IMG/VR virus record: IMGVR_UViG_2711768002_000004
Source of the DNA: a virus
Taxonomy: Duplodnaviria > Heunggongvirae > Uroviricota > Caudoviricetes
Strand: one strand, 5' to 3'
Length of the DNA stretch: 39,841 bases
Positions 154 through 39,841 of the stretch are shown here, piece after piece. Every line of letters starts with the position of its first letter. Positions within the stretch are counted from its first letter, which is position 1. A program made the translations under genes and the position numbers. The notes beneath the pieces were generated by a model that was given only the letters and a program-made list of their open reading frames with translations, was not told the DNA's origin and ran no database searches.

Positions 154-560
154 GTAAGCGTGCAGCAAGAACCGTATTGACGGGAATGTGTTATTCAGTC
201 GGCAGTGCTACGCGCCAGGGGAGCAGTTCGCCGACCCGGTTTATCGGCCAGTCGGCTATGACGTCAAGGACATAGCGGAGGTAGCTTTCTGGCTCCACTC
301 CGTTCAGTTTGCACGTCCCGATCAGGCTGTACAGCAGCGCTCCCCGCTCTCCTCCATGATCCGAACCGAAGAACAGGTAGTTTTTGCGGCCCAGACTGAC
401 CATCCGCAACGCATTTTCAGCGATGTTATTGTCCGCCTCAGCCCAGCCATCATCTGCATAGTACGTCAGCGCCGGCCACTGGTTCAGGGCGTATGCGAAC
501 GCTTTCGCCAGTTCTGAGTGTCGCGACAGGGTTTTCATCTTTTCACGCAGCCAGCTTTCC
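154..560 (-). mobile_element. IS66-family insertion sequence, right-hand portion (terminal repeat region plus 3' part of tnpC), cut by the N gap
   Basis: tnpC C-terminal reading frame at 191-560; GTAAGCG motif at 154-160, which I recall as the typical IS66-family terminus (from memory, not verified). Confidence 0.65.
191..560 (-). CDS. tnpC: IS66-family transposase TnpC, C-terminal fragment (frame stays open up to the gap)
   Basis: Translation MKTLSRHSELAKAFAYALNQW...DNNIAENALR...GRKNYLFFGSDHGGERGALLYSLIGTCKLNGVEPESYLRYVLDVIADWPINRVGELLPW matches the conserved C-terminus of IS66 TnpC as I recall it; N-terminal ~400 aa absent from the window. Confidence 0.85.
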
Positions 561-1624: not shown

Positions 1625-1720
1625 CAATCGATCGACAAAAACGATCGATTTGATTTATTTAATTGATACAACAAATAACACGAAATGTCATTAGCGAAAA
1701 TTTATGAGTTTGATCACTAA
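1625..1720 (-). promoter_or_regulatory. Putative com/mom promoter-regulatory region with clustered GATC (Dam) sites
   Basis: GATC at 1630-1633 and 1643-1646 (13 bp apart) and 1712-1715 in an AT-rich region just upstream of com; in Mu the mom promoter is controlled through upstream Dam sites and OxyR. Confidence 0.4.
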
Positions 1721-2299: not shown

Positions 2300-2554
2300 T
2301 TACATCATGGTACTGTCAGTTCCGGGCTGAGCCGGGTCTGGTTGCTCTGGCTGCGCGTCGGTTTTCGGCTCATTATCAGCATCACTGGCCGCAACTGCTG
2401 GCCCAATAAGTTTTGCCAGCACTTCATCAACGTAAGTGTCGATTTGTGCCTCAAAATCCTTGCGGACCTGCGCTTTCAGCAACTTATTTACTTCACCGGA
2501 ATACAGTGCCTGTTTTACCAGGTCTTCAGTGACGGTGCCTTTAATTTCTGGCAT
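2300..2554 (-). CDS. Hypothetical protein (84 aa), acidic/Pro-rich C-terminus
   Basis: ORF with strong AAGGAGG Shine-Dalgarno upstream of ATG at 2554; part of the cargo locus between gin and com. Confidence 0.55.
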   Translation of the reverse strand: MPEIKGTVTEDLVKQALYSGEVNKLLKAQVRKDFEAQIDTYVDEVLAKLIGPAVAASDADNEPKTDAQPEQPDPAQPGTDSTMM

Positions 2555-2916: not shown

Positions 2917-4971
2917 TTACGCGTTATTCACTTCCACCACGATACTGTCAATCAGTACCGGGTAAGTCGCATTTTTAGTGATATCGGTCACGCGCAACTT
3001 GTCTGCCGTAAACGTGCCGACCGGAGACTGCGACAGCATGAATGGTGTCCCGTCCTTACCATCAATGACCGGCGTCACCTCAATACTGTTGTTACCGGCA
3101 AAACGGAAGCCCAGCGTATGCCATTCGTTATTAAATGCGCCGAATGACCCCAGCTTCGTGTTCTGCGCCGTGTTTCCTTTGTGATACATCACGTTAAGGT
3201 CTGTGGCATCGCTCTGTACGTAGAACGATGCCAGCAGGTTATGACCGGCATTTCCTTCCAGAGTAACCCCTTGCGGCAGGGCAGAAACCGGCCAGTACAG
3301 CGCCAGTGCGTACTGATTAGCCGTAAGCGCGCCATCGAGTTTAAAACGACAACTGACAAGACCACCTTTACCCAGCAGGTCCGCACCATTACCAGCATCA
3401 TGCTCAAGGTACCAGGGGGCTCTTCCTGTTTCCTTGGTCAGTTTCATTGCCTTACCCCCGCTGGCTCCGGCATCATCCACGATTTGAGCCTTGCCACCTC
3501 CGGCAGCCCAACCCTGTGGTGTCAACCGTCCTTCAGACTCAGATGCCCGGTAAGCAAATAGCGTACTCATCGTCGTGGTGTCTGCGGGTGGCGTGGACGG
3601 TTTTGATGGTGTATCAGGTGACGGCTTCTCATCCGGTGGTGTCACGGTCTGCCCACGCATCAGTTCAGCCGTGCGCCCTGCATGGAGCATAATAGCTGAG
3701 GCCAGACGGTCTGAAATGACGCCCCTGCGTGCCCATGAGCTGAAATGGCTGTCACGCTGTGTCGAAACAAAACTGCCCTGGGTTCGGGATGCTGCACCGT
3801 AATACCCGACAGCCACAATATCCGGGTCTTCCGCCGGAGCATTCGTTGGCGTGCTCTGTCCATTCTCATCCGTCAGGAACGGTACAAAGAAAATTTTCTG
3901 TGCTTCCTTGCCTTTGTAGCCACCGTATACTGCCTCATATTTATCGGTGCCAGCGTTTTTCCAGTAATACGTGGTATCACCGCAAATCCACGGCACCGTG
4001 GTGGCATTTCCACTCACGCACTGCGCAGCAAGCGGAGCCAGGTCAGTTCTGAACTGCTGAACCATGGCCGTGAATAAACTATTATGCTGCTGGCTTCCTG
4101 AGGCAAGGTCTGCCTCTCCCTGCATCCAGACCACAGCCAGAAGTTTGTTTTTCGGGTTTTTCGCCAGCGCGACTTTGGTGCGGCTTACCAGGTCCTGATA
4201 CAGAGGTTTACCGGCCCCCCAGCGTGAAGAATCAGCGGAAGCACCGCTGGCCTCACTGAATGAGCCGTCGGCTCCAGTGGTGAATGCTGACCCGCCACGA
4301 CAACAGGGCACCAGAAGTATCCCGGCATTCTGTGGGATATAGGGAAGCAGTTTTTTGGCAATATGCAACCCCTGACCGACAGTCCCGTACTGGCCTTTTG
4401 CCAGATCAGCTTTCGGGTGGTTTATCCCGCTCATATCCTGAACATCATGCAGGCAGTGGTCTGCCGGAATGATGTCGTTGTATGTACACGACGTACCGTT
4501 GGGCGTTACCGTACTGCGGCGTGCCAGTTGCTTAATGCGTGGGTCCGGGCGGTCAAACGAATCCGGTAACGGCAGCCCCTCGCCGTAGGCCATGCCATTT
4601 GACTGACCCGCGAGAATGACAACAAAGTAATATTCCGGCTCTGAACTGCTGCCATTCGTGCTACCGGAAGGCCCGGCGTTATCCGGTGCATTCCAGTCGG
4701 AGGGCGTGAGCGTTCCGGCCACGTCAGATGTGATTGGAATGATGCCAGTCACGCCTGAACTGGTGATTTCTGCACTGGGATTACCGGATACCGGCATTAC
4801 CCATAATGGCTCTTTCGTGCTGAAGCGGATCACGCAGTCTGCGAAGGTGATCCCCCCTTTATTACCCGAAGGGCGGAAAGGGCTTTCAATAAATGCCACC
4901 GTGCCACCGGCAACCTTGACTGAAAACTCTCCGGGCATGGCGGAGAGCATTTTCCACTTGGAGTCTGACAT
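2917..4971 (-). CDS. Large cargo protein (684 aa) with SGNH / sialate-O-acetylesterase-like (DUF303-type) esterase motifs; putative carbohydrate O-acetyl esterase
   Basis: Motifs YFVVILAGQSNGMAYGEG (GQSN block) and AVVWMQGEAD (QGE block) recalled as typical of the family; Ser/Thr/Pro-rich linker and Gly-rich C-terminal ~250 aa. Sits where Mu has no gene (between gin and com). Confidence 0.6.
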   Translation of the reverse strand: MSDSKWKMLSAMPGEFSVKVAGGTVAFIESPFRPSGNKGGITFADCVIRFSTKEPLWVMPVSGNPSAEITSSGVTGIIPITSDVAGTLTPSDWNAPDNAGPSGSTNGSSSEPEYYFVVILAGQSNGMAYGEGLPLPDSFDRPDPRIKQLARRSTVTPNGTSCTYNDIIPADHCLHDVQDMSGINHPKADLAKGQYGTVGQGLHIAKKLLPYIPQNAGILLVPCCRGGSAFTTGADGSFSEASGASADSSRWGAGKPLYQDLVSRTKVALAKNPKNKLLAVVWMQGEADLASGSQQHNSLFTAMVQQFRTDLAPLAAQCVSGNATTVPWICGDTTYYWKNAGTDKYEAVYGGYKGKEAQKIFFVPFLTDENGQSTPTNAPAEDPDIVAVGYYGAASRTQGSFVSTQRDSHFSSWARRGVISDRLASAIMLHAGRTAELMRGQTVTPPDEKPSPDTPSKPSTPPADTTTMSTLFAYRASESEGRLTPQGWAAGGGKAQIVDDAGASGGKAMKLTKETGRAPWYLEHDAGNGADLLGKGGLVSCRFKLDGALTANQYALALYWPVSALPQGVTLEGNAGHNLLASFYVQSDATDLNVMYHKGNTAQNTKLGSFGAFNNEWHTLGFRFAGNNSIEVTPVIDGKDGTPFMLSQSPVGTFTADKLRVTDITKNATYPVLIDSIVVEVNNA

Positions 4972-7554: not shown

Positions 7555-8114
7555 TAAATAGTCTCCTCTTCATGGCTGTTTGCATAAACGTAAATAAACG
7601 TCTGCCATGCAGGCTTATAACGGTTCAGAATACATTCCAGCGCACCGCCTTCATAAATACGCAGCGGCGTGAGAATATCATCCAGCACATTCATATTCCG
7701 GTAGCCGGTTTCACTGTTAATCGTGACAATACTGACCCACTGCGAATCCGGTGAGGGCTGAATGTCAATCTGATAACCAAACTCCGCCGCAAACCGGATA
7801 TAAAATTCACGGTTCAGCGAGGGCTTCATCCGGTATTTATTTCCGGCATAACGCTGTCGCTCCGTGAGGGTGGCTCCGGCCATATCACACTCGGGAAGCC
7901 CGAGATAACGCTCCCAGTCTTCCAGCAGCAGGCGCGACGTGTCAGGGAAACGCTCGGCAAGCAGCTGTTTACCCGTCCAGGATACACGCGCTGTCGAATG
8001 ACTGAGGCCCAGACATAATGATGCCAGTACGGATGACGGACGCTTGTCCCATGCCAGCCCGTCAGGCAGTAACTGCAACAGGGCGCGCTGATGCGGGGTC
8101 AGGGTTACAGCCAT
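7554..8114 (-). CDS. Tail/baseplate protein (Mu gp48-like, P2 gpI-like)
   Basis: 186 aa; position between the baseplate J-like gene and the tail fibre; start overlaps the downstream gene. Confidence 0.65.
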
Positions 8115-12687: not shown

Positions 12688-14731
12688 AGTTCCCTCCGTT
12701 CCAGACGTTCACATCCAGGCCATGCTGTGCGGTATCATCCACATCAATACTGCGCGCCCGCCAGCCTTCAGGGGCAACAAGCTCCACCCGTGCGGCGGTT
12801 TTCGCGGTGGCCTGTCCGCCGTTTTCGTCACTGCCGCCACGCAGTTTCTGCCAGGCCTGCGTCAGCCAGCCCCCCAGATAATCACCGAGATAGCTGCCCA
12901 CCGTGGAACCAATGGCAACCCCGACCGGACCGGCAGCCGCCCCCAGCGCGCCACCGGCGATACTTCCGGCAAGGGAACCCACGGCACCGGCTTTATCGGC
13001 TGCACTGGCGCTGCTGTCCAGCAGTACAGGAGCCGCCATGGCACCGGCCCACAGGGCACCACCACCCAGCCGACCGGCACCACGGAACAGCCCGGCAAAA
13101 CGCCCCAGCCCCATGCGGTTTCCGGCCGCCGTTAGCAGACCACCGGCACGGCTCATCATACGACCGAAGAAGCCCTGTTTACCGGCACTCTCCGCCAGTT
13201 GCTCACCGGCAGTCACGACGGTCGTGACACCCCGTCCACGTCCGGGGCCGCGTTTTTTACGGCCGCGCACGGTTTTGCCGTCACCGCTGACCACCACATC
13301 CCCGCCACCTGAGGCCAGGCCACCCGCAGGCCAATTGGTGACCAGCACGGGCTGAACGGCAGCCGGATTTACCCCGGTAAGGAAATTCAGGAACCGGCCA
13401 GCGCGTCCGGGCTGCGTTCCCGGTACAGTGGTCTGCGGTTTGCGGAAGGGCGACGTCAGCACGGAGGTCATCGCCATGCCATAGCGTAAGGGGGTTGCGC
13501 CGAGACGTAATGCCCCCGTCCCCGCAAACCTGAGCACCTTCAGCGCACGGGAGGCGAGATACATATACATCAGGTACTTTGCGGCGGTCTGCGCACCCTG
13601 ACCAATGCGATCCAGCGCATCGCCATAACCGGCGTCGCGCAGTGCCTGAAGCGTTTCCCTGACTTTCTGAATGACCCGGTAAAAGCCGGTCGCAGCGTCT
13701 CTGGCATACTCAAATCCCTGATTCAGGGCTGAGGCCGTCTGTGTGGCCAGCTTATCCTGTAAGCCGCTTTTCTGTGCCGCATCAGCATAATCCAGAAAGC
13801 CTTTCAGGCTCTTTTTCAGGCTGTCAAACGGTCCCTTTGCCATCACCTCGCGGGCAAATCCGTCCCAGACATCGCCCATCATGGACGTCATTCCCGTCCA
13901 GGAATTCATGGCGTTTTTCTGGGCACCTTTTGCCTGTTCGGCCATCACCTGAAATAACAGGCGAATGCTGTCCGGTCCCAGTTTTCCTTTCTCGCCTTTC
14001 TCACGGATGATCTTCTGGTTTACACCCAGCTTATCGGCCAGCAACTGGTAAACGTTAATCCCGTATCCGGTCAGAATATTGGCGTCCGCTGCCTGGATAC
14101 TCTGGCGGGCAAACATCTGTTTGAGTTGCAGGGACGCACCCTGTGCATCTGACAGTGACCAGCCGTGATAGCCGCCCTGATCCTGAAGCATGGTAATAAA
14201 GCGACGGGCTTCCCTGTCACTCATACCGAACCCGCGACTGGAGGCGTATTCCTGCATAACCCCCGCCAGCCCCCAGGTGGTGTCTTTGGCGTTCTGTACC
14301 GCCCAGGCTTTCACTGCTTCCGTTTTTGCCGTATCGCCATGATTAATGGCGTTGAGACGCAGAATATAGTTCTCCATCTCTGCGGCCGGGCGGATAAAGG
14401 CTTTATTAAACCCGTAGACCGCAGCCCCTCCCGCCAGCATCCCGTAAAGGTTGCTTATCCGCCCGATGGTGCCGGTAATGCTGCCCTGAAGGCGGTCAAA
14501 ATCTGACGTCACCGTGCGGATACTGCCACGAACACCGGCAAGCGTTCGCTGCATACGGGAGCCGACAAGTTCTGTCTCCTGACCGGCACGACGTGCTGCA
14601 TTTCCAAGACCACCCAGCCCCGTCCTGCCGGAACGGGAGAATGCCCCCAGCTCCTGTGACCACTGGCGGGATTTGGCAGAAATATTGCCGAGTAAATCGA
14701 CAATCAGGGAGGCTTTCAGGTTTTTTGCCAT
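12674..14731 (-). CDS. Tail tape measure protein
   Basis: 685 aa, Ala/Gly-rich with long Gly-rich C-terminal stretch; follows the chaperone/tube/sheath genes. Confidence 0.8.
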   Translation of the reverse strand: MAKNLKASLIVDLLGNISAKSRQWSQELGAFSRSGRTGLGGLGNAARRAGQETELVGSRMQRTLAGVRGSIRTVTSDFDRLQGSITGTIGRISNLYGMLAGGAAVYGFNKAFIRPAAEMENYILRLNAINHGDTAKTEAVKAWAVQNAKDTTWGLAGVMQEYASSRGFGMSDREARRFITMLQDQGGYHGWSLSDAQGASLQLKQMFARQSIQAADANILTGYGINVYQLLADKLGVNQKIIREKGEKGKLGPDSIRLLFQVMAEQAKGAQKNAMNSWTGMTSMMGDVWDGFAREVMAKGPFDSLKKSLKGFLDYADAAQKSGLQDKLATQTASALNQGFEYARDAATGFYRVIQKVRETLQALRDAGYGDALDRIGQGAQTAAKYLMYMYLASRALKVLRFAGTGALRLGATPLRYGMAMTSVLTSPFRKPQTTVPGTQPGRAGRFLNFLTGVNPAAVQPVLVTNWPAGGLASGGGDVVVSGDGKTVRGRKKRGPGRGRGVTTVVTAGEQLAESAGKQGFFGRMMSRAGGLLTAAGNRMGLGRFAGLFRGAGRLGGGALWAGAMAAPVLLDSSASAADKAGAVGSLAGSIAGGALGAAAGPVGVAIGSTVGSYLGDYLGGWLTQAWQKLRGGSDENGGQATAKTAARVELVAPEGWRARSIDVDDTAQHGLDVNVWNGGNYGLY

Positions 14732-20967: not shown

Positions 20968-21144
20968 ACCGGCAGCATAAGCCGGGTATTTTTGGGGCTG
21001 GTTTTGCGGGACTTCAGAAAGTGCTGACAGGGGGGGAATGAGAAAGGCGCTTCACGCAGATTTTAAAGCCCGTTAAATACAGGTTAGAAAATCACGACAC
21101 GCGCCTGAAGGGGGTAAGGTAATACGTTTGCATACCTTAAACCA

Positions 21145-28628: not shown

Positions 28629-29129
28629 TCAGACTTTCGGCAAATCGTAACGACATAACCATTCATCCGCCGAACGGCGGGCCTCAAGACCGGGGAGTTT
28701 TACCCCCTTTGAATAAATCCAGCGGATATACTGCTTACAGGACGCGGGCATCTGCCCGGCATTGATAAGGCGCAGGAGCGTGGAGTTGCGAAAGTTCGTT
28801 TCACCGGCCCAGAAAATCCAGGAGGCCAGCGCCACCGTCTGACCACGGGTAAGCGGCACCTGAACATGACGATCGATAGCCGCAAAGGCCCATTTCATGT
28901 CCTTTTCCAGCAGCTCCAGACACTCTTCATCAGTTTTTGTCATCCCCGGTTTCACATCCGGGCCGGTATGGCCGTAACAGATGGTGGGGGTGCCGGTGGG
29001 ATCAATGTACGTGGTGTTTTCTTTCCCTTCCCAGTAGCCGGTGTAGTGCGTGGCAATGGTGAACGTCCCGGCTCCGGCCAGAACAAGGGCAATCAGCTTT
29101 TTACGCAGGGGTGCGGGGAGTTTTGGCAT
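28629..29129 (-). CDS. SAR-endolysin (lysozyme with N-terminal signal-anchor-release domain)
   Basis: N-terminal hydrophobic LIALVLAGAGTFTIA, then YWEGKENTTYIDPTGTPTICYGHTG (Glu-Asp-Thr catalytic spacing of T4/lambda-type lysozymes). Confidence 0.8.
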   Translation of the reverse strand: MPKLPAPLRKKLIALVLAGAGTFTIATHYTGYWEGKENTTYIDPTGTPTICYGHTGPDVKPGMTKTDEECLELLEKDMKWAFAAIDRHVQVPLTRGQTVALASWIFWAGETNFRNSTLLRLINAGQMPASCKQYIRWIYSKGVKLPGLEARRSADEWLCRYDLPKV

Positions 29130-29200
29130 TGTTACGCTGTCTCATGGTGTTCTCTGAGTCAGCGTAACCGTGAGGAAAAGGGGGCAGGATTTGCGGAATA

Positions 29201-29623
29201 TCAGAAAAGCCGTGGCTGCGTGCGTTCCTGATGCAGGCGACGCTGGTTGCGGATAACGGAGTAAATCTGCGTCTCTGACATCTGGTAGTGGCGGCGCAGG
29301 GTTTCAATTTTTTCGCCCTGGCTCCAGCGGGAAAAAATTTCATTATTGCGCAGTTCGGTGAAAAGGGATTCACCGACCGGGAGATAATAACCACGCCCGC
29401 CCATGTACCCGGCCTGTGCGGCTGCAACCTTACGGGCAAGCATTCCCGCCTGAGCAGGTTCAATCCCCTGACGGTGCAGTTCAGCACTGATCACATCAAC
29501 CAGGTCCCGCAGCGTGCCGGGCCAGTTCTTTTTCAGCTCATCATCAGGAATATCATCCAGACGGTCAATCAGCGCGTGCAGCTGTTCGCTGTCACCAAAC
29601 ATGCTCATCTGTGTTTCAGCCAT
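29201..29623 (-). CDS. Mor/C-family transcriptional activator (single copy; positioned like Mu C, directly upstream of the lysis genes)
   Basis: 140 aa; C-terminal ...GGRGYYLPVGESLFTELRNNEIFSRWSQGEKIETLRRHYQMSETQIYSVIRNQRR matches the Mor/C family pattern as recalled. Confidence 0.8.
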   Translation of the reverse strand: MAETQMSMFGDSEQLHALIDRLDDIPDDELKKNWPGTLRDLVDVISAELHRQGIEPAQAGMLARKVAAAQAGYMGGRGYYLPVGESLFTELRNNEIFSRWSQGEKIETLRRHYQMSETQIYSVIRNQRRLHQERTQPRLF

Positions 29624-29654
29624 ACCCGCCTCCGGTCATCATTACACAGGGCAA

Positions 29655-29687
29655 GTTTAAAATAAAAATCCCGCGCTGTGGCGGGAT
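29655..29687 (-). terminator. Rho-independent terminator ending the early operon (minus strand)
   Basis: Hairpin ATCCCGCC-ACAG-CGCGGGAT followed on the minus strand by TTTTTATTTT; sits between the GemA-like gene and the Mor/C gene. Confidence 0.55.
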
Positions 29688-29693
29688 TTGGGG

Positions 29694-30206
29694 TTAACGG
29701 GGGAATGATTTTTCATACAGCCTGCAAACACGCTCATAACTCATCACTGCACGTTCCGACATATCCAGGGCTGCCAGCATTTTGCGGCGGTGCCAGCGTT
29801 TGAGACGCTCCAGCACATCAGAGGCCAGCGCGGGTTGTTGCTCCAGCCACTGCCAGTTAGCCACACCTTCGCCGTCGTTCTGCGCGGCCGTCTGCGATTT
29901 CACCCAGCGGTTAAGGGCCGTTTCCCCGCCATCAGAGATAAATCCCTGCCGGTGCATCACTTTCCAGATGGCGCGAATTTTGGCGGTCACCGTACCCGGT
30001 TTTAAGGCCCGGTTAACCGGCTTCTGACGCACTTTAAAACCGCGTTTTTTGAAAACATCCAGCACGCGGGATAACTCACCGGGTGACATATCACGGCAAC
30101 TGGATTTGCCGGTGGCTGCCAGCAGCGCGGATGTATAGGTATCATGGTCAAGCTGTAGATCGCGTTTTGCGACATGTATTAAGGTAATCAGGGAAGCGCG
30201 ATTCAT
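29694..30206 (-). CDS. GemA-like protein (Mu gp16 / DUF1018-like)
   Basis: MNRASLITLIHVAKRDLQLDHDTYTSALLAATGKSSCRDMSPGELSRVLDVFKKRGF... resembles the gp16 family N-terminus as recalled. Confidence 0.55.
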   Translation of the reverse strand: MNRASLITLIHVAKRDLQLDHDTYTSALLAATGKSSCRDMSPGELSRVLDVFKKRGFKVRQKPVNRALKPGTVTAKIRAIWKVMHRQGFISDGGETALNRWVKSQTAAQNDGEGVANWQWLEQQPALASDVLERLKRWHRRKMLAALDMSERAVMSYERVCRLYEKSFPR

Positions 30207-30276
30207 TATCGTGGCTCCATAAAAAATGGGCGGTGTTACCGCACCGCCATGTCAATTAACATAAAAGGAAAAATCT

Positions 30277-30516
30277 ATGTCAGATATAAAAAATGCACTT
30301 GATGTTGCCGCATTCACAATGGCTGGAAATCTTATGGTAACCCTGTTCGATAAGGGGCTGATTTCCCGTGAGGAGGCAATACATATTATCAATCTCGCTC
30401 AAAAAAACTCTACCCCGGAAAATGCAGAAGATATCCAGGATGGCTCATATATTAATACCGACTGGCATTTCGACAATCTCCGGGCCTGTATGGGGATTAC
30501 CGCTGAAAAAGATTAA
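30277..30516 (+). CDS. Hypothetical protein (79 aa), plus strand, convergent with and overlapping the next gene by about 20 nt
   Basis: AAAGGAAAAA Shine-Dalgarno 6 nt upstream of ATG; AT-rich; the only well-supported plus-strand gene in the early region. Confidence 0.5.
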   Translation: MSDIKNALDVAAFTMAGNLMVTLFDKGLISREEAIHIINLAQKNSTPENAEDIQDGSYINTDWHFDNLRACMGITAEKD

Positions 30517-30929: not shown

Positions 30930-31254
30930 TATGTATCCCCTGTAATTCCGGCAAGGCCGAAAGATGGCACCAGTGCGTCACCTGTCCGTCCTCATCTTCA
31001 AGGCAGGCTCCGGTTTCTTCATCAATAAAAAAGCCTTCATACCCCATATGGCCGATGCGCAGTTCCTGTTGGTCACCATACTGAACAATCAGCACGACAG
31101 CCTCCATATCAGGCGGAAATGCGTCATCCAGTGAATGCCAGGGATAACCGCGCAAATCCCCGAAATAAACGCCGGTCAGCGTTCCGCCACAGAGCGGCAT
31201 TCCGGCGGCACACACAAGAGGTTCATCTGATTCAACAAATAAGGTCGTTATCAT
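30922..31254 (-). CDS. Hypothetical protein (110 aa)
   Basis: ORF in the early operon, translationally coupled to neighbours. Confidence 0.5.
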   Translation of the reverse strand: MITTLFVESDEPLVCAAGMPLCGGTLTGVYFGDLRGYPWHSLDDAFPPDMEAVVLIVQYGDQQELRIGHMGYEGFFIDEETGACLEDEDGQVTHWCHLSALPELQGIHNG

Positions 31255-31802
31255 GGCGTTAACTCCCGTAATACAGCGTCCTCGGCAGTCCGGCGACGGT
31301 AATAAACTGCGTGAGCAGAATGTTCAGATATTCCAAACTTTTCGCCAATTTCCCGGAATGACAGACGGCGTGGGTAATCGGAATCACGCAGCTCACGTAT
31401 AAGACGTACATCATCATCAGATATGCGCGTGCCGGGGCGTAACTCTCCGCACTTTGTTAATCCAGCACCAATCATTCCTGCCCGACATCTGACAGAATCT
31501 TTATTACGTCCGAGATATTCTCCCATTTGCTGGCAGGTCATTGTTCTGGCATTTTTTCGAATAAACTTATCTTCATCAGGTGTAAATCTTGGGTGTTTAT
31601 ATTTCAGTAACTCCGGGTATGAACTGCGCAATACACCAGTCCGGTTATATACAGCCCAGACAGTTCTTTTTATTCTGGCAGCAATATCCTTAACCGGGGT
31701 GGATGAATAAAGCGCAATCAGCAGCGCATCTTCTTCAGGTGTCCACGGACGGACATGAGCGGGGGCGCGACCTTTTAGTCCCATGGGTTGTAATTTCATC
31801 AT
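31251..31802 (-). CDS. Putative DNA-binding protein with repeated helix-turn-helix-like units
   Basis: WTPEEDALLIALY...IAARIKRTVWAVYNR, FTPDEDKFIRKNAR...MGEYLGRNKDSVRCR, LSFREIGEKFGISEHSAHAVYYRR: three Myb/sigma-r4-like repeats by eye. Confidence 0.45.
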   Translation of the reverse strand: MMKLQPMGLKGRAPAHVRPWTPEEDALLIALYSSTPVKDIAARIKRTVWAVYNRTGVLRSSYPELLKYKHPRFTPDEDKFIRKNARTMTCQQMGEYLGRNKDSVRCRAGMIGAGLTKCGELRPGTRISDDDVRLIRELRDSDYPRRLSFREIGEKFGISEHSAHAVYYRRRTAEDAVLRELTP

Positions 31803-34658: not shown

Positions 34659-34886
34659 TTAGCTGACTTGTTTCGCACCAACAGAACGGCATATTCCGCT
34701 GTAAACTTCTGTCGCACCTTCGCGATCAAGTCCGGCAGATATCACCATTCGTGTGCGGTCATTAAATTCAAAAAGTAAATCGCCACATTCTTTATTTTCG
34801 GCCAGTGAAATCACCTTCACGTTATCGAAATTAACCAGGTAAAAGCGTCCGTAAATATCAGGAATATTAAATACCGCCATAATCAC
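34659..34886 (-). CDS. Small early protein directly downstream of B (position of Mu kil)
   Basis: 75 aa; positional analogy only. Confidence 0.45.
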   Translation of the reverse strand: MIMAVFNIPDIYGRFYLVNFDNVKVISLAENKECGDLLFEFNDRTRMVISAGLDREGATEVYSGICRSVGAKQVS

Positions 34887-35824
34887 ACCTGTGAGAGTAA
34901 TTCAGGGTTGGTATAAACCTCTTTAAAGGCCGCATTAATATGTTTTTCTGTCAGCGCCGCGCCTTCACCGCTGGCGGTGAGCCACGCCTGGTTAAGCGTA
35001 TGTGTCAGAACGCGTAACGCTCCCGGCTTTTCAGCGATAGCCTGCATGACGGCCAGCTCGGCCTCACCACTGATCCCCCACGCCATGGCAATGGCCAGCA
35101 CATCCGCCTTTTTGGCCTTGCGAAGTTGTTTTGTACGGGCAAGACGGCTGAACAGGCGCGATAAATCATCAAAGGCGCGGCGTCCACCTTTAAACAATCC
35201 GCGCGGGTTACCAATAAGCACCATCCCGATCCCCGTGGCGTCCTGAATTGCCCGGAGTTGCTCCAGACCGTCAATACCAAGATGATCCGCCTCATCCACA
35301 ATCACCAGTCCACGCGTTCCCATCAGGCGACGGCGGATGGCGCGGGATAATGCCCCTTTGTTCGCGCGGGTGTAATCAATCCCCAGCGCATCGGCCAGCT
35401 CCAGCAGACACTCCGTGACGCTGGAGTGCGCGGGTGACAGGGTGATCATCCAGGTGTTTGGTTGCTCCTGGCAGTAATTACGGGCAGTGGCCGTTTTACC
35501 CACACCCGGTACGCCCACAATAACGTTAATACAGCCCATCAGGCGAACCGCCTGAAACAGTGCGCGCAGCTCCTGGACTGTCTGAGTTTCCACAAACTGC
35601 GGCGGTTCCGGCAGTGCGCTTTGTTTATTCCAGTTCTCATACCAGGAGCGCAGGGAAGCAGCCACAGCAGCGTTATCGCCTTTATATTTTCCCTTACGGA
35701 AAGCCGATAATGTGCCGTCGGAAATTCCCGCCTCTCTGGCGATGGCATACTGCGTCAGTACGCCGCCATCAATAAGTTCATCAATGGTCTTGATTACATC
35801 GTTAATATCGGTCATATTATTCAC
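34883..35824 (-). CDS. B: Transposition protein B (MuB-like ATP-dependent target DNA activator)
   Basis: 313 aa; P-loop VGVPGVGKTATARNY, DEADHLG, and end-to-end similarity to Mu B as recalled (PEPPQFVETQTV..., KPGALRVL...). Confidence 0.9.
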   Translation of the reverse strand: MNNMTDINDVIKTIDELIDGGVLTQYAIAREAGISDGTLSAFRKGKYKGDNAAVAASLRSWYENWNKQSALPEPPQFVETQTVQELRALFQAVRLMGCINVIVGVPGVGKTATARNYCQEQPNTWMITLSPAHSSVTECLLELADALGIDYTRANKGALSRAIRRRLMGTRGLVIVDEADHLGIDGLEQLRAIQDATGIGMVLIGNPRGLFKGGRRAFDDLSRLFSRLARTKQLRKAKKADVLAIAMAWGISGEAELAVMQAIAEKPGALRVLTHTLNQAWLTASGEGAALTEKHINAAFKEVYTNPELLSQV

Positions 35825-35897: not shown

Positions 35898-37985
35898 TCA
35901 GGCCAGCGGATCACTTTCTTTTAATTTCGCTTCGAGCAGTTGCAATCCCCGCTGGAAATTACGCTCGTATTCTTCATCAGGTTCATCGTCAGCGACCGGT
36001 TGCTGAACGGTCACCGTATTACCCACAGGGCGGTATATGTTTTCCAGCCAGGGCTCCTGCGGCTTGTGCTCCAGCACGTTGACAACCTCATCCTCGGCAT
36101 CACGGATTTTTTCCTCTGCGCGTTTACGCATGCCTTTAAGGCGCTGCTGCTGTTTGTAGTATTCCGCGCTGACAGGGAAGGCTTCGCGTTTATTGCCGTC
36201 CCATACCGCCTCGCAAATCACGCTGCCATCCGGGCGGCGCACGGTAATTCGTTCGGCATCATGAATGTCATAGCTGATAAGTACCTTACGGCCATGCTCG
36301 TCACGCAGCTCGGGCGCGTAGTAAATATTATTCAGCCAGCGTATTTCACAGCGTCTTACAGGGCGCTCCACCATCGGCCGGAACATATCCCGCAGTTCAA
36401 CATCGGACAGCCATTCAATTTCCGTGTCCTCTTCCGCCAGGCGTTTTTTTCTGAACTCCGCCGGGCTGTAATGTTTACCGTTCGGCTTCATGGGTAATTC
36501 ATCGTGCGGCCGGTTGTTGTACCACTCAACACCGTCACGAATGGCATCAATCAGTTCAGACCAGGACGGTAAATCACGCATCGCTGACTGCTGCCGGGCG
36601 TTCAGCCGTTTGCCCTGTTGCAGGGCACTGAATGCCGAGCGTAAATCGCGGTTGGTTTTACGTAACGTCTCGCGATCTGCTCCTTTCCCGAAATAGGTGC
36701 GGTATTTACGGGCTATGCGCATCGGTAATGTGCGGTTAAGCCGTTCGATAATGCCCCGTCCCTGCGGATTACCGGCAATCCCTGTCGGGTGATTAATCCC
36801 CAGTCGTGGCAGTATCCCCACAATCTCCTTATCCAGGACGTCGGCGGTTTCCCCGGAGCCATTATCCGAGTAATACAGAAACGGTTTGCCATGATGGCGA
36901 ATACCGTGCTGTATGGCACCGGCTACGGCGAAAACATTTTCAGCCAGGTCAAGGCTCCAGCCCACCACAAAGCGCGTGCCACCGTCGATAACAAAGGTCA
37001 CTTCCGGTGCGAATGGCCGCCCGTGAACCGGGTGCGCGCATTTCAGCTTCATGCCGTGACCGTCACCAATCCAGACATAATTCACCGGCATTCTGGACCA
37101 GTCGCGGCGCGTGAATCCCTCAAGCTGACGGTATTCACTGCCAGTTACCCGGCCTTTTTGTTTCACCACTTCCGGCAGTTTCTTCATTGCGCGGCGAATG
37201 GTGTCATAAGAGGGCATGATATCGAGCATATAAGGCTCATCAGCGTGCCGGTGCTGCCATTCAGCAACAAAATCCTCGTAAGCCTCGGTCATTGGTCGGC
37301 CGTTTGACTGGCGATACTGCGCCAGAAATTCGGGCAGCCAGTTAATATCTTCGGCTTTTATTTCCTGGCGTTTACCCGGTGCCAGTAAAAGCAGGCGTTC
37401 AGCGGCGTTCTGTGCCTTGTTAAAGGCCGCAATCCAGCGTTTCAGCGTGATTTCACTCAACGCGCGGCTGTTTCCCTTTTTGGCGTTCGCCGTCTCAACC
37501 ATTGCCACAATGCGCTCGTCCAGTTGTGATCGTGCCAGGCTGTTAACGAGGAACCGGATAGCTTTAGCGCAGCTGAAACCGGGTTGTTGCGTGAATTTCA
37601 GCACCTCACTGACGATCGCAATGCGTGCGTCTGCCACCTGGCGCTGGTTTTCAGTCAGGGCATTGAGGCGTTCGACCATCAGTTGTGGTGATCCGCGATA
37701 TGCCTCCACCGCATCAACCACGGCAGACGAGCGTCTGGCCTTTGTCACCACCGGAGCCGGTGATTCATCGGCTTTTTGCGTCATCAGTTGCAGGGCATAA
37801 CGTTCGCGTAATGCCTGCTGTGTCACTTCAGGTAAACAGTCAATGCTGTATTCAAAACCTTTAGCGCCTTTCTTGCGGCGTCTGCTGGTTTCGCTGGTTG
37901 CATACTTCCTGATTGAATAGCGAACGCCTTGCTCCGTTCCCGGCATCCCCGGTAATCCAACCAGTTCTTTAACTGAAGCAAACAT
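35898..37985 (-). CDS. A: DDE transposase (MuA-like)
   Basis: 695 aa; N-terminal VSPKE..LPG-like opening (ASVKELVGLPGMPGT) and position directly after ner. Confidence 0.9.
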   Translation of the reverse strand: MFASVKELVGLPGMPGTEQGVRYSIRKYATSETSRRRKKGAKGFEYSIDCLPEVTQQALRERYALQLMTQKADESPAPVVTKARRSSAVVDAVEAYRGSPQLMVERLNALTENQRQVADARIAIVSEVLKFTQQPGFSCAKAIRFLVNSLARSQLDERIVAMVETANAKKGNSRALSEITLKRWIAAFNKAQNAAERLLLLAPGKRQEIKAEDINWLPEFLAQYRQSNGRPMTEAYEDFVAEWQHRHADEPYMLDIMPSYDTIRRAMKKLPEVVKQKGRVTGSEYRQLEGFTRRDWSRMPVNYVWIGDGHGMKLKCAHPVHGRPFAPEVTFVIDGGTRFVVGWSLDLAENVFAVAGAIQHGIRHHGKPFLYYSDNGSGETADVLDKEIVGILPRLGINHPTGIAGNPQGRGIIERLNRTLPMRIARKYRTYFGKGADRETLRKTNRDLRSAFSALQQGKRLNARQQSAMRDLPSWSELIDAIRDGVEWYNNRPHDELPMKPNGKHYSPAEFRKKRLAEEDTEIEWLSDVELRDMFRPMVERPVRRCEIRWLNNIYYAPELRDEHGRKVLISYDIHDAERITVRRPDGSVICEAVWDGNKREAFPVSAEYYKQQQRLKGMRKRAEEKIRDAEDEVVNVLEHKPQEPWLENIYRPVGNTVTVQQPVADDEPDEEYERNFQRGLQLLEAKLKESDPLA

Positions 37986-38403: not shown

Positions 38404-38949
38404 ATGAACAAGCAAACAACAACATCTCTTTCTTTTCCTGGTGGTAGAAAAGAAAGCATTGCTGAGCGTCTGAAAAGGCTGATTGGCTCCCGCAGCGTCA
38501 GAGCTGCAGCAAGAGATTGGGGGCTTTCATTTTCAACACTAAACAATTATCTGTCTCGTGGCACTGAGCCATCCTTAAGTGTCGCCCTTCAGATTGCGTC
38601 TATCGAAGGAGTAAGTGTTGAGTGGCTATGTGGATTCAGTGATGCATCACAAGTGAATCGGTGTGAGATCAAGGAAAATCAAGATGAAAGCAAGAAGATA
38701 ATTATGACGATTATCAGCGCACTTGATGAAAAAGACTTAGAGCAGCTATCGAAAAATTTGGTTCTGAATGGAGCCAAGTACTTAGCTCGGTTGTTAGAGC
38801 CTGAAAATCAAGATCTAATCCGCTTAGAAGGAAGGAAAAGAATAGCTGCATTACAGCTTGAAGGTATGTCTGACGAACGCGTCAGAGAGATTTTGGAAGA
38901 AACTGAGAGAAGTCGCAAATCTAACGCGGTAGAACCAAAAGCGGGTTAA
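38404..38949 (+). CDS. Prophage repressor, XRE/CI-type helix-turn-helix (functional analogue of Mu c)
   Basis: 181 aa; HTH ...SVRAAARDWGLSFSTLNNYLSRGTEPSLSVALQIASIEGVSVEWL; divergent from ner-A-B; no S24 peptidase motif seen. Confidence 0.75.
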   Translation: MNKQTTTSLSFPGGRKESIAERLKRLIGSRSVRAAARDWGLSFSTLNNYLSRGTEPSLSVALQIASIEGVSVEWLCGFSDASQVNRCEIKENQDESKKIIMTIISALDEKDLEQLSKNLVLNGAKYLARLLEPENQDLIRLEGRKRIAALQLEGMSDERVREILEETERSRKSNAVEPKAG

Positions 38950-39185
38950 TAGCATTAGCCCGCATTTTGCACTATATCGAGTATTTCGCATTGTTTGGAA
39001 CGCCTTAAAAGACTAAAACCACAGTATCAAATGAGTTGCCGATTTTATAATAAATGACTAATTATTGCACAATCGGTATCAAATAGACCTTATCCGCACA
39101 TCTAGCCATCACCTGTTTTATTTCAGTATCTTACAGGTGATTTCACCTCCTTTCACTAAACCCCTTGTCGGTATCAAATGATTCA
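38950..39185 (-). repeat. Prophage left end with three transposase-binding-like direct repeats
   Basis: (C)GGTATCAAAT at 39023-39032, 39074-39084 and 39169-39179; on the phage strand the element would begin 5'-TGAATCATTTGATACCG. Confidence 0.6.
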
Positions 39186-39506
39186 CCTGGTTATATGTCG
39201 CCAGTCGATACCTTCCAGCAGCATCGCCAGCTGCGCCTGTGTAAGGAACACTTTGCCATCACGGGCTGACGGCCAGGCGAAGCGCCCACGCTCCAGCCGT
39301 TTGGTCAGGAGGCACAGTCCGTCACTGGTGGACCACAGCAGTTTAACCTGACTGCCGCTGCGGCCCCGGAAAATGAAAACATGGCCGGACATGGGATCGT
39401 CTTTCAGCGCCGTCTGTACTTTCGCAGCCAGGCCGTTGAAGCCATTTCTCATATCGGTGATACCGGCAACCAGCCAAATTTTGATCCCGGAAGGTAACGG
39501 GATCAT
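39183..39506 (-). CDS. tnpB: IS66-family TnpB (orf2); 3' end apparently fused to the prophage terminus
   Basis: MIPLPSGIKIWLVAGITDMRNGFNGLAAKVQTALKDDPMSGHVFIFRGRSGSQVKLLWSTSDGLCLLTKRLERGRFAWP...; stop codon TGA (39185-39183) coincides with the putative TG terminus of the prophage. Confidence 0.85.
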   Translation of the reverse strand: MIPLPSGIKIWLVAGITDMRNGFNGLAAKVQTALKDDPMSGHVFIFRGRSGSQVKLLWSTSDGLCLLTKRLERGRFAWPSARDGKVFLTQAQLAMLLEGIDWRHITR

Positions 39507-39841
39507 CGCTTCAGTTCCTGTATCAGCAGAGTCAGGAGCTTTTCGCTGACATTGCCATTGAAGCGGAGCGTCCCGTGCCGGAACGTTACCTCACAGCTGA
39601 TACTGAGGGTTTTCGGGTCCTCTGCGAGCGATTCTGGCTGTTCGGCAGCTGCATCGAGAGTCACAGGAAGTAGCTGGGGGCTCTCTGAAGAAGGTAATAG
39701 CTGAGGTGTACTGGCAATAGCGGACACTACCATTTGTTCTTTTTTTAAGCAGCCATCTGATGATATTTTTCCCTGAAGGCTGCCGGGGAGATATTCCCCA
39801 GACGAGAGTGACGACGCTGACGATTGTAGAAAATCTCAATG
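39503..39841 (-). CDS. tnpA: IS66-family TnpA (orf1), partial; frame open to the window end
   Basis: Upstream of and overlapping tnpB; ...EKLLTLLIQELKR C-terminus; reading frame has no stop up to 39841. Confidence 0.55.

Follow-up and report, generated by a model that had tools for sequence, protein, structure and literature searches.

The window, that is, the whole stretch of 39,841 nucleotides analyzed here, contains only one transcription activator that belongs to the Mor/C family, and this protein, judged by its similarities and by the position of its gene, is the counterpart of the late-gene activator C of phage Mu and not of Mu Mor. The regulatory cascade in which it acts is probably built on this single C-type late activator and consists of two tiers. 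The gene itself is of a known and routinely annotated kind, is found in a common prophage, and stands in an arrangement typical of Mu-like phages. The features of the locus, all on the minus strand, are the following.

29201..29623 (read from 29623 to 29201), minus strand: sole Mor/C-family activator gene, C-type, 140 aa, assigned by Pfam Mor and by similarity to Mu C
29621..29633, minus strand: GGAGG ribosome-binding site and ATG of the activator gene, read directly off the sequence
29694..30206, minus strand: gemA, the last gene before the terminator (PF06252 GemA, 1.8e-28; 46% identity to Mu GemA)
29656..29689, minus strand: predicted intrinsic terminator after gemA, with the hairpin at 29689-29666 followed by a T-run, from a terminator scan
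28629..29129, minus strand: lysozyme gene, the first late gene (PF00959 Phage_lysozyme, 1e-36; 40% identity to Mu lys)

The window carries one Mu-like prophage, which lies on the minus strand, is related to Sp18, and is collinear with Mu (ner, A, B, gam, gp11, gp12, gp13, gp14, gemA, lys, head and tail genes, gin, com, mom). At the DNA level it is closest to chromosomal prophages of E. coli and to Mu-like prophages that have inserted into Stx phages. One regulatory gene is divergent from these operons.

38404..38949, opposite in direction to the phage operons: divergent HTH repressor gene

This repressor is of the CI/HTH_3 type and not Mu c, and the transposase (35898-37985, minus strand) is only about 22% identical to Mu A, which indicates a module for immunity and transposition whose lineage differs from that of the remaining phage; the adjacent B protein (34883-35824, minus strand) is 48% identical to its Mu counterpart. 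The left end of the window holds the C-terminal part of an IS66-family transposase (191-538, minus strand) and the right end an IS66-family orf2 (TnpB_IS66) with a probable orf1 (39183-39733, minus strand). Since both ends carry parts of one IS66-family element, the prophage appears to be inserted in an insertion sequence of the ISEc8 type. A cargo block between gin and com/mom, absent from Mu and present in the Sp18 type, includes genes for a protein of 684 aa that has both a SASA (sialate O-acetylesterase-like) domain and DUF6645 (2917-4971, minus strand) and for a DUF826 protein (2300-2554, minus strand). Between gp14 and gemA, antisense to the early operon, there is an ORF of 79 aa (30277-30516, plus strand) that has a good ribosome-binding site and matches phrog_32893, a PHROG without assigned function; it is probably a moron, being absent from L002 (an Sp18-type prophage), from the more distant relatives L003 and L004, and from Mu. 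No tRNA genes were found in the window, and Rfam gave only sub-threshold chance matches.

The ORF running from 29623 to 29201 clearly encodes a Mor/C-family protein. It starts with ATG, with GGAGG located 8 nt upstream, and matches Pfam PF08765 (Mor) at 6.7e-31 and 106.9 bits (cut-off 24.9), the match spanning profile positions 2-107 of 107 and thus its full length; a custom Mor/C HMM scores it at 7e-52. Proteins of the Mor/C family are small (about 100-150 aa), their N-terminal half being acidic and their C-terminal half basic, and have an invariant linker, G-G-x-x-x-Y-x-P-x-G, joining the dimerization and HTH domains (PMC2582627). The window protein has a net charge of -6 over residues 1-70 and +4 over residues 71-140, that is, an acidic N half and a basic C half, and its linker, GGRGYYLPVG, fits the family pattern. 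Residues G75, G76, Y80, and P82 are invariant in 16 aligned family members, and G84 is conserved in the window activator, Mu C, and Mu Mor. An earlier interpretation of the locus from its letters only (the sequence-only reading) had given the coordinates and description of this locus correctly, and its placement of the activator directly upstream of the lysis genes is borne out by the Pfam PF00959 assignment of the lysozyme gene, which begins 71 bp downstream of the activator gene.

The same reading had recognized one Mor/C gene and proposed a profile search of the early proteins, which was run and revealed no second member. In blastp comparisons with all stop-to-stop ORFs of the window, Mu Mor and Mu C each match one ORF only. 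Pfam identifies no second Mor member at E ≤ 1 among the 105 early-region ORFs of at least 45 aa on both strands, and no second Mor/C member is found among 769 six-frame ORFs of at least 30 aa by the custom HMM, for which the next best value is 1.4. This HMM was built from a varied set of 145 family members, Mu Mor and Mu C among them, and was run with --max, i.e., without filters. As a positive control, it detects two ORFs in Mu, namely Mor and C, and it finds exactly one copy in each of 52 related loci (52/52, each taken with ~6 kb of flanking DNA on both sides). The prophage is complete in the window, running from the c side to mom, apart from 121 masked bases (N, 562-682) at the mom-side phage end. 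With its one copy, the window does not contain the Mu-type pair of paralogous Mor/C activators.

The sequence-only reading had raised, as an alternative to a simplified cascade, the possibility that some early gene encodes a further activator from a different family, and no support for this emerged. Only one additional early DNA-binding candidate is present in the window.

31251..31802, minus strand: early gene for a 183-aa protein of phrog_323, between the gp12 and gp13 homologues

This protein matches phrog_323, labeled 'transcriptional regulator, D5-like', at 5e-53 and gives weak Myb/HTH matches in Pfam. Its membership in a PHROG family assigned to transcription regulation, together with the location of its gene in the early region and the lack of a Mu counterpart, would fit a cascade that keeps three tiers and in which a non-homologous early regulator, likeliest this one, replaces Mor at the promoter of the Mor/C gene. 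Such a replacement is nevertheless improbable: the PHROG label is an annotation of putative function, no motif ties the protein to the candidate promoter of the activator gene (Pc), and the protein, present in the window and the Sp18 type only, is absent from Mu as well as from L003 (Salmonella, 67% activator identity) and L004 (50% activator identity), both of which retain the gemA-(terminator)-activator-lys layout and the same -10. Because it is missing from relatives having the same layout, the 183-aa protein is considered accessory and outside the conserved cascade, and it was set aside as a second activator.

The assignment to the C type rests on several comparisons. BLASTP aligns the activator with Mu C at 40% identity and 111 bits and with Mu Mor at 28% identity and 59 bits; for reference, the identity between the two Mu proteins is 37%. 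In a search of the PDB, the best matches are two chains named 'Late transcription activator C' (2e-28, 102 bits), and the Mor chain follows at 2.5e-11 and 46.7 bits. MuC is reported to have two clamp-binding motifs, an N-terminal Qx[D/E/S][L/M]F and a C-terminal QPxLF, and Mor a weak N-terminal motif only (PMC12867686). The window activator carries QMSMF at residues 5-9 and QPRLF at residues 136-140, its very C-terminus; both agree with the published patterns and may thus be clamp-binding motifs of the MuC type. The protein has the length of C, its gene occupies the place of C directly upstream of lys, and, relative to Mu, mor and gp18-20 are missing from the window. The window protein thus resembles Mu C (PDB 9l0x, 9vw8) in family, size, terminal motifs, and gene position, and it also keeps the GG..Y.P.G linker and the S..QIY recognition helix; its predicted target promoters likewise have a -10, lack a -35, and bear a box containing AATCC around -40. 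It differs from the Mu system in that the Mu C gene is part of a distinct middle operon, placed after gp18-20, and depends on Mor, whereas the window gene directly follows the gemA terminator with no Mor present; in that the box consensus is CAAAwCC in the window and ATAAyCC in Mu; and in that the baseplate operon and com of the window lack recognized boxes. PGAP and Pfam name the protein only as 'Mor family', and on this basis it might be regarded as a Mor-like middle regulator, with the late genes switched on by other means or merely co-transcribed. This is very improbable, given that the score against C is about twice that against Mor, that the gene sits in the position of C, that the lys and I promoters bear boxes resembling Mu C sites, and that the window offers no other candidate for a late activator.

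Mor and C bind a 16-bp dyad centered at -43.5 and activate sigma-70 promoters that have a -10 and no -35 (PMC4390567, PMC2582627). The geometry of Pm and of the C sites was taken from these two papers and from counting on the Mu sequence, and all promoter calls in the window were made from sequence. The candidate late promoter elements are as follows.

29183..29206, minus strand: putative Plys activator box TTCTGATATTCCGCAAATCCTGCC, from a pattern search, overlapping the activator stop codon
29161..29166, minus strand: Plys -10-like hexamer TACGCT, with the CAAAT of the box 22 nt before it
20974..21019, minus strand: candidate promoter of the I-like gene, with box TTCTGAAGTCCCGCAAAACCAGCC at 21019-20996 and -10 TATGCT at 20979-20974
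7609..7630, minus strand: possible third late box TTCTGAACCGTTATAAGCCTGC, within the gp48 coding region and in front of tail-fibre gene S

Candidate Plys consists of TTCTGATATTCCGCAAATCCTGCC, 16 nt, and TACGCT, with no -35, and the candidate promoter of the I-like gene has the same layout, with TTCTGAAGTCCCGCAAAACCAGCC, 16 nt, and TATGCT, again with no -35. The Plys box is similar to the Plys region of Mu, ATAATCCCGC, and in L002 the lys and I boxes and their -10 hexamers are kept while the spacers diverge. A loose pattern, [ACT][AT]AAnCCnG[CG]-N15-19-TAnnnT, gives four matches on the phage strand, one each in front of the activator gene, lys, I, and S (tail fibre), and none on the other strand, compared with a mean of 0.44 and a maximum of 2 by chance (first-order Markov simulation, 200 runs). 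It also recovers Pm, Plys, and PP of Mu. A stricter pattern, TTCTGA-N8-14-AAnCCnGC, gives three matches against 0.025 expected. Both patterns were written after the lys and I sites had been seen, and only the S box, found by patterns not trained on it, is an independent match; it lies in coding sequence, and its conservation is inseparable from the coding constraint of gp48. The promoter motif search proposed by the sequence-only reading was thus productive in part: it points to boxes at lys and the I-like gene and possibly at the tail-fibre gene S, and the motif search of the window found none at the baseplate operon or at com/mom.

A fourth exact CAAATCCCGCC occurs at the start of the tape-measure gene (14665-14675, minus strand) and is conserved in L002. 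With no -10 downstream, it probably reflects coding conservation or chance, and the site at 14675 was rejected as a late box. At about 1655-1720 (minus strand), upstream of com, several GATC sites are clustered (GATCGTTTTTGTCGATCGATTG); the Sp18 type shares this cluster, which resembles the Dam/OxyR-controlled region of Mu Pmom.

In the proposed scheme the activator would bind candidate boxes of the form TTCTGA-N9-AAAwCCnGCC at lys and at the I-like gene, and perhaps also at the tail-fibre gene; some 22 nt downstream, the boxes would be followed by -10 hexamers (TAyGCT) without a -35. By analogy with C in Mu, binding to these boxes would switch on lysis and morphogenesis. If a C-type protein drives the lys and I promoters, the cascade would have two tiers, early and late, as opposed to the three of Mu. 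The simplified cascade that the sequence-only reading had suggested is accordingly the favored of its two options, given the single C-type protein and the C-type boxes at lys and the I-like gene.

The question of how the activator gene itself is expressed centers on the 70-bp spacer that separates it from gemA. The spacer contains a GC-rich stem-loop followed by a U-run, which is a predicted rho-independent terminator: a 9-bp stem, AAATCCCGC/GCGGGATTT, with 5 GC pairs, a 6-nt loop, CACAGC, and then TTATTTT. The RNA folds at -13.5 kcal/mol (z = -2.66), and 2 of 200 shuffled sequences fold equally well. The intrinsic terminator that had been proposed to part the activator gene from the early operon is therefore upheld by both the terminator scan and the fold. 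The hairpin arms AAATCCCGC/GCGGGATTT are kept in relatives down to 47% protein identity while the loops vary; across 13 aligned sequences ATCCCGC, the core of the 5' arm, does not vary, and there is essentially no covariation in the stem. Conservation of this kind had been considered as proof of protein binding, an argument that is weakened by an unrelated hairpin upstream of gemA.

30229..30248, minus strand: second terminator-like hairpin, GGCGGTG-N6-CACCGCC plus T-run, just upstream of the gemA ribosome-binding site

The arms of this hairpin, GGCGGTG/CACCGCC, are identical in Mu, L043, L044, and L050, and its counterpart in Mu (L001), at about 8194, is annotated as a semi-early promoter. 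As this control is conserved just as well, Mu included, hairpin conservation alone proves nothing.

Many relatives (L015, L021, L036, L039-L043, L045, L049, and L052) have acquired a small cargo gene that separates gemA from the activator gene. The cargo is often antisense and often has a signal-peptide-like N-terminus, as judged by eye. A copy of the AAATCCCGC..GCGGGATTT hairpin stands on each side of it, which marks the gemA-activator junction as an insertion hotspot.

Directly after the hairpin, the spacer contains hexamers that may belong to a promoter of the activator gene.

29654..29664, minus strand: candidate -10 elements of Pc, TATTTT (29664-29659) and TAAACT (29659-29654), predicted from sequence

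The -10-like hexamer after the T-run is TAAACT in the window and TATAGT, TATATT, TATACT, or TATAAT in relatives; no good -35 for Pc is seen in the spacer. Another candidate for the Pc -10, TGTGTAATGAT, which resembles Mu just downstream of TATCCT, was dropped for not being conserved in the Sp18 type. The order of hairpin, T-run, and -10-like hexamer recurs in relatives at 47-84% protein identity, and the hexamer persists where the 5' arm has been replaced (L036, L042, L043). The 5' arm of the terminator bears AATCCCGC, the core of the late-promoter boxes. An AATCC core is common to the 5' arm, to all late boxes of these phages, and to Mu Plys (ATAATCCCGC) and Mu Pm (TTAATCCGGC). The distance from this core to the hexamer, counted by hand, is 27-29 nt in Pc, 25-26 nt in Plys of the same phages, and 25 nt in Mu Pm. 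In L050 the Pc box, AAAATCCCGCCA, resembles the Plys box, ATAATCCCCGCCA, and in L004 CCCCGGCCAC is present in both the Pc and the Plys boxes. These features suggest that the gemA-activator spacer may contain a Pm-like, activator-dependent promoter embedded in a terminator.

The comparison with Mu Mor and Pm (PDB 1rr7) is consistent with this suggestion. The two activators belong to the same family, and the homologous position in Mu is occupied by Pm, which, according to the annotation, overlaps the predicted terminator after mor, so that terminator, box, and hexamer appear in an equivalent intergenic position. The gemA-mor stretch closes with this predicted hairpin, and in Pm TTAATCCGGC precedes the TATCCT hexamer by 17 nt. 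The systems differ in that the window protein shares little identity with Mor, as given above, in that the hairpin is placed differently relative to the box, and in that the activator gene of Mu lies upstream of the terminator, giving feed-forward control, whereas the window gene lies downstream of it.

If Pc is activated by a Mor/C protein, it must be self-activated, since the only Mor/C gene lies downstream of Pc. The terminator would limit the yield of activator from the early transcript, and the 70-bp spacer would be the counterpart of the Mu middle promoter Pm; the small amount of activator made by read-through would then stimulate its own promoter, producing a positive feedback loop. This feedback step is possible, at somewhat less than even chances. 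The larger proposal, in which the terminator doubles as an activator-dependent promoter, the self-activating latch is ancestral, the Mu relay arose from it by duplication, and the unit marks the cargo hotspot, is put forward as a tentative one.

A simpler account of the same spacer, in which activator is supplied by read-through only, would have no promoter there; the terminator would attenuate and time activator synthesis, and both the hexamer and the AATCC core would be incidental to an AT-flanked, GC-rich terminator. It accords with a terminator that is well formed, with the lack in Pc of the TTCTGA left half present in the late boxes, with spacing that departs by 1-4 nt from that of the late promoters (in the window's own group the AATCC core of Pc is 3-4 nt farther from the hexamer than in the late promoters), and with the equal conservation of the other hairpin, which has no AATCC core. 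In L004, moreover, the -10 hexamer is present and the AATCC hairpin absent. Against this account stands the recurrence of a near-consensus -10 (TATAAT, TATACT, or TATAGT) after the T-run in diverged relatives, including the three in which the 5' arm has been replaced, and the fact that Mu has, at the corresponding place, a genuine promoter that depends on an activator and overlaps a predicted terminator (PMC4390567). Read-through only is somewhat unlikely, and a promoter embedded in the terminator, as suggested above, is only slightly preferred.

The arrangement itself is common. The identical protein occurs in public collections on at least 1000 contigs as 'Mor transcription activator family protein', and the order gp16/gemA, Mor-family gene, lysozyme gene is found in about 231 of 5426 complete E. 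coli genomes; the window subtype (≥95% identity) accounts for 26 complete E. coli genomes and the Sp18 type (~81%) for about 202. When the activator was compared by tblastn with 50,697 phage records, matches at two places were found only in Muvirus genomes (Mu, D108, SfMu, and Yersinia vB_YpM phages), and every other Mu-like match had one place (BcepMu, phiE255, and Vibrio, Shewanella, Pseudoalteromonas, Pasteurella, and Klebsiella phages). The gene table of KS10 likewise gives gp16 and then a single Mor (PMC2628397). From these counts and KS10, a single activator is the norm and the Mu pair the exception, and the earlier implication that one Mor/C gene is unusual is not supported, as this is the rule in Mu-like phages. 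The Sp18-type prophages of STEC (E. coli O157 and others) and the single-activator Mu-like phages (BcepMu, phiE255, KS10, and those of Vibrio, Shewanella, and Pseudoalteromonas) share with the window one Mor/C gene, typically beside gemA. In the Sp18 type the protein is 84% identical, and terminator, boxes, and gene order all agree with those of the window; L002 has 81% DNA identity to the window across the activator region; the window differs in representing a less common subtype with a diverged 5' UTR and extra cargo genes.

As it stands, the gene is of little importance in itself: it is routinely annotated, its prophage is present in ~4% of complete E. coli genomes, and Mu-like phages usually have a single activator. 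What the comparison corrects is a Mu-centered expectation, in that the pair of Mor and C is exceptional and here only the C-type protein occurs, without a Mor-type paralogue. If the self-activating terminator/promoter unit were real, it would explain the timing of late transcription in single-activator transposable phages and would provide a plausible evolutionary origin for the middle promoter of Mu, and it would offer a simple handle on the late-gene induction of Sp18-type prophages in pathogenic E. coli.
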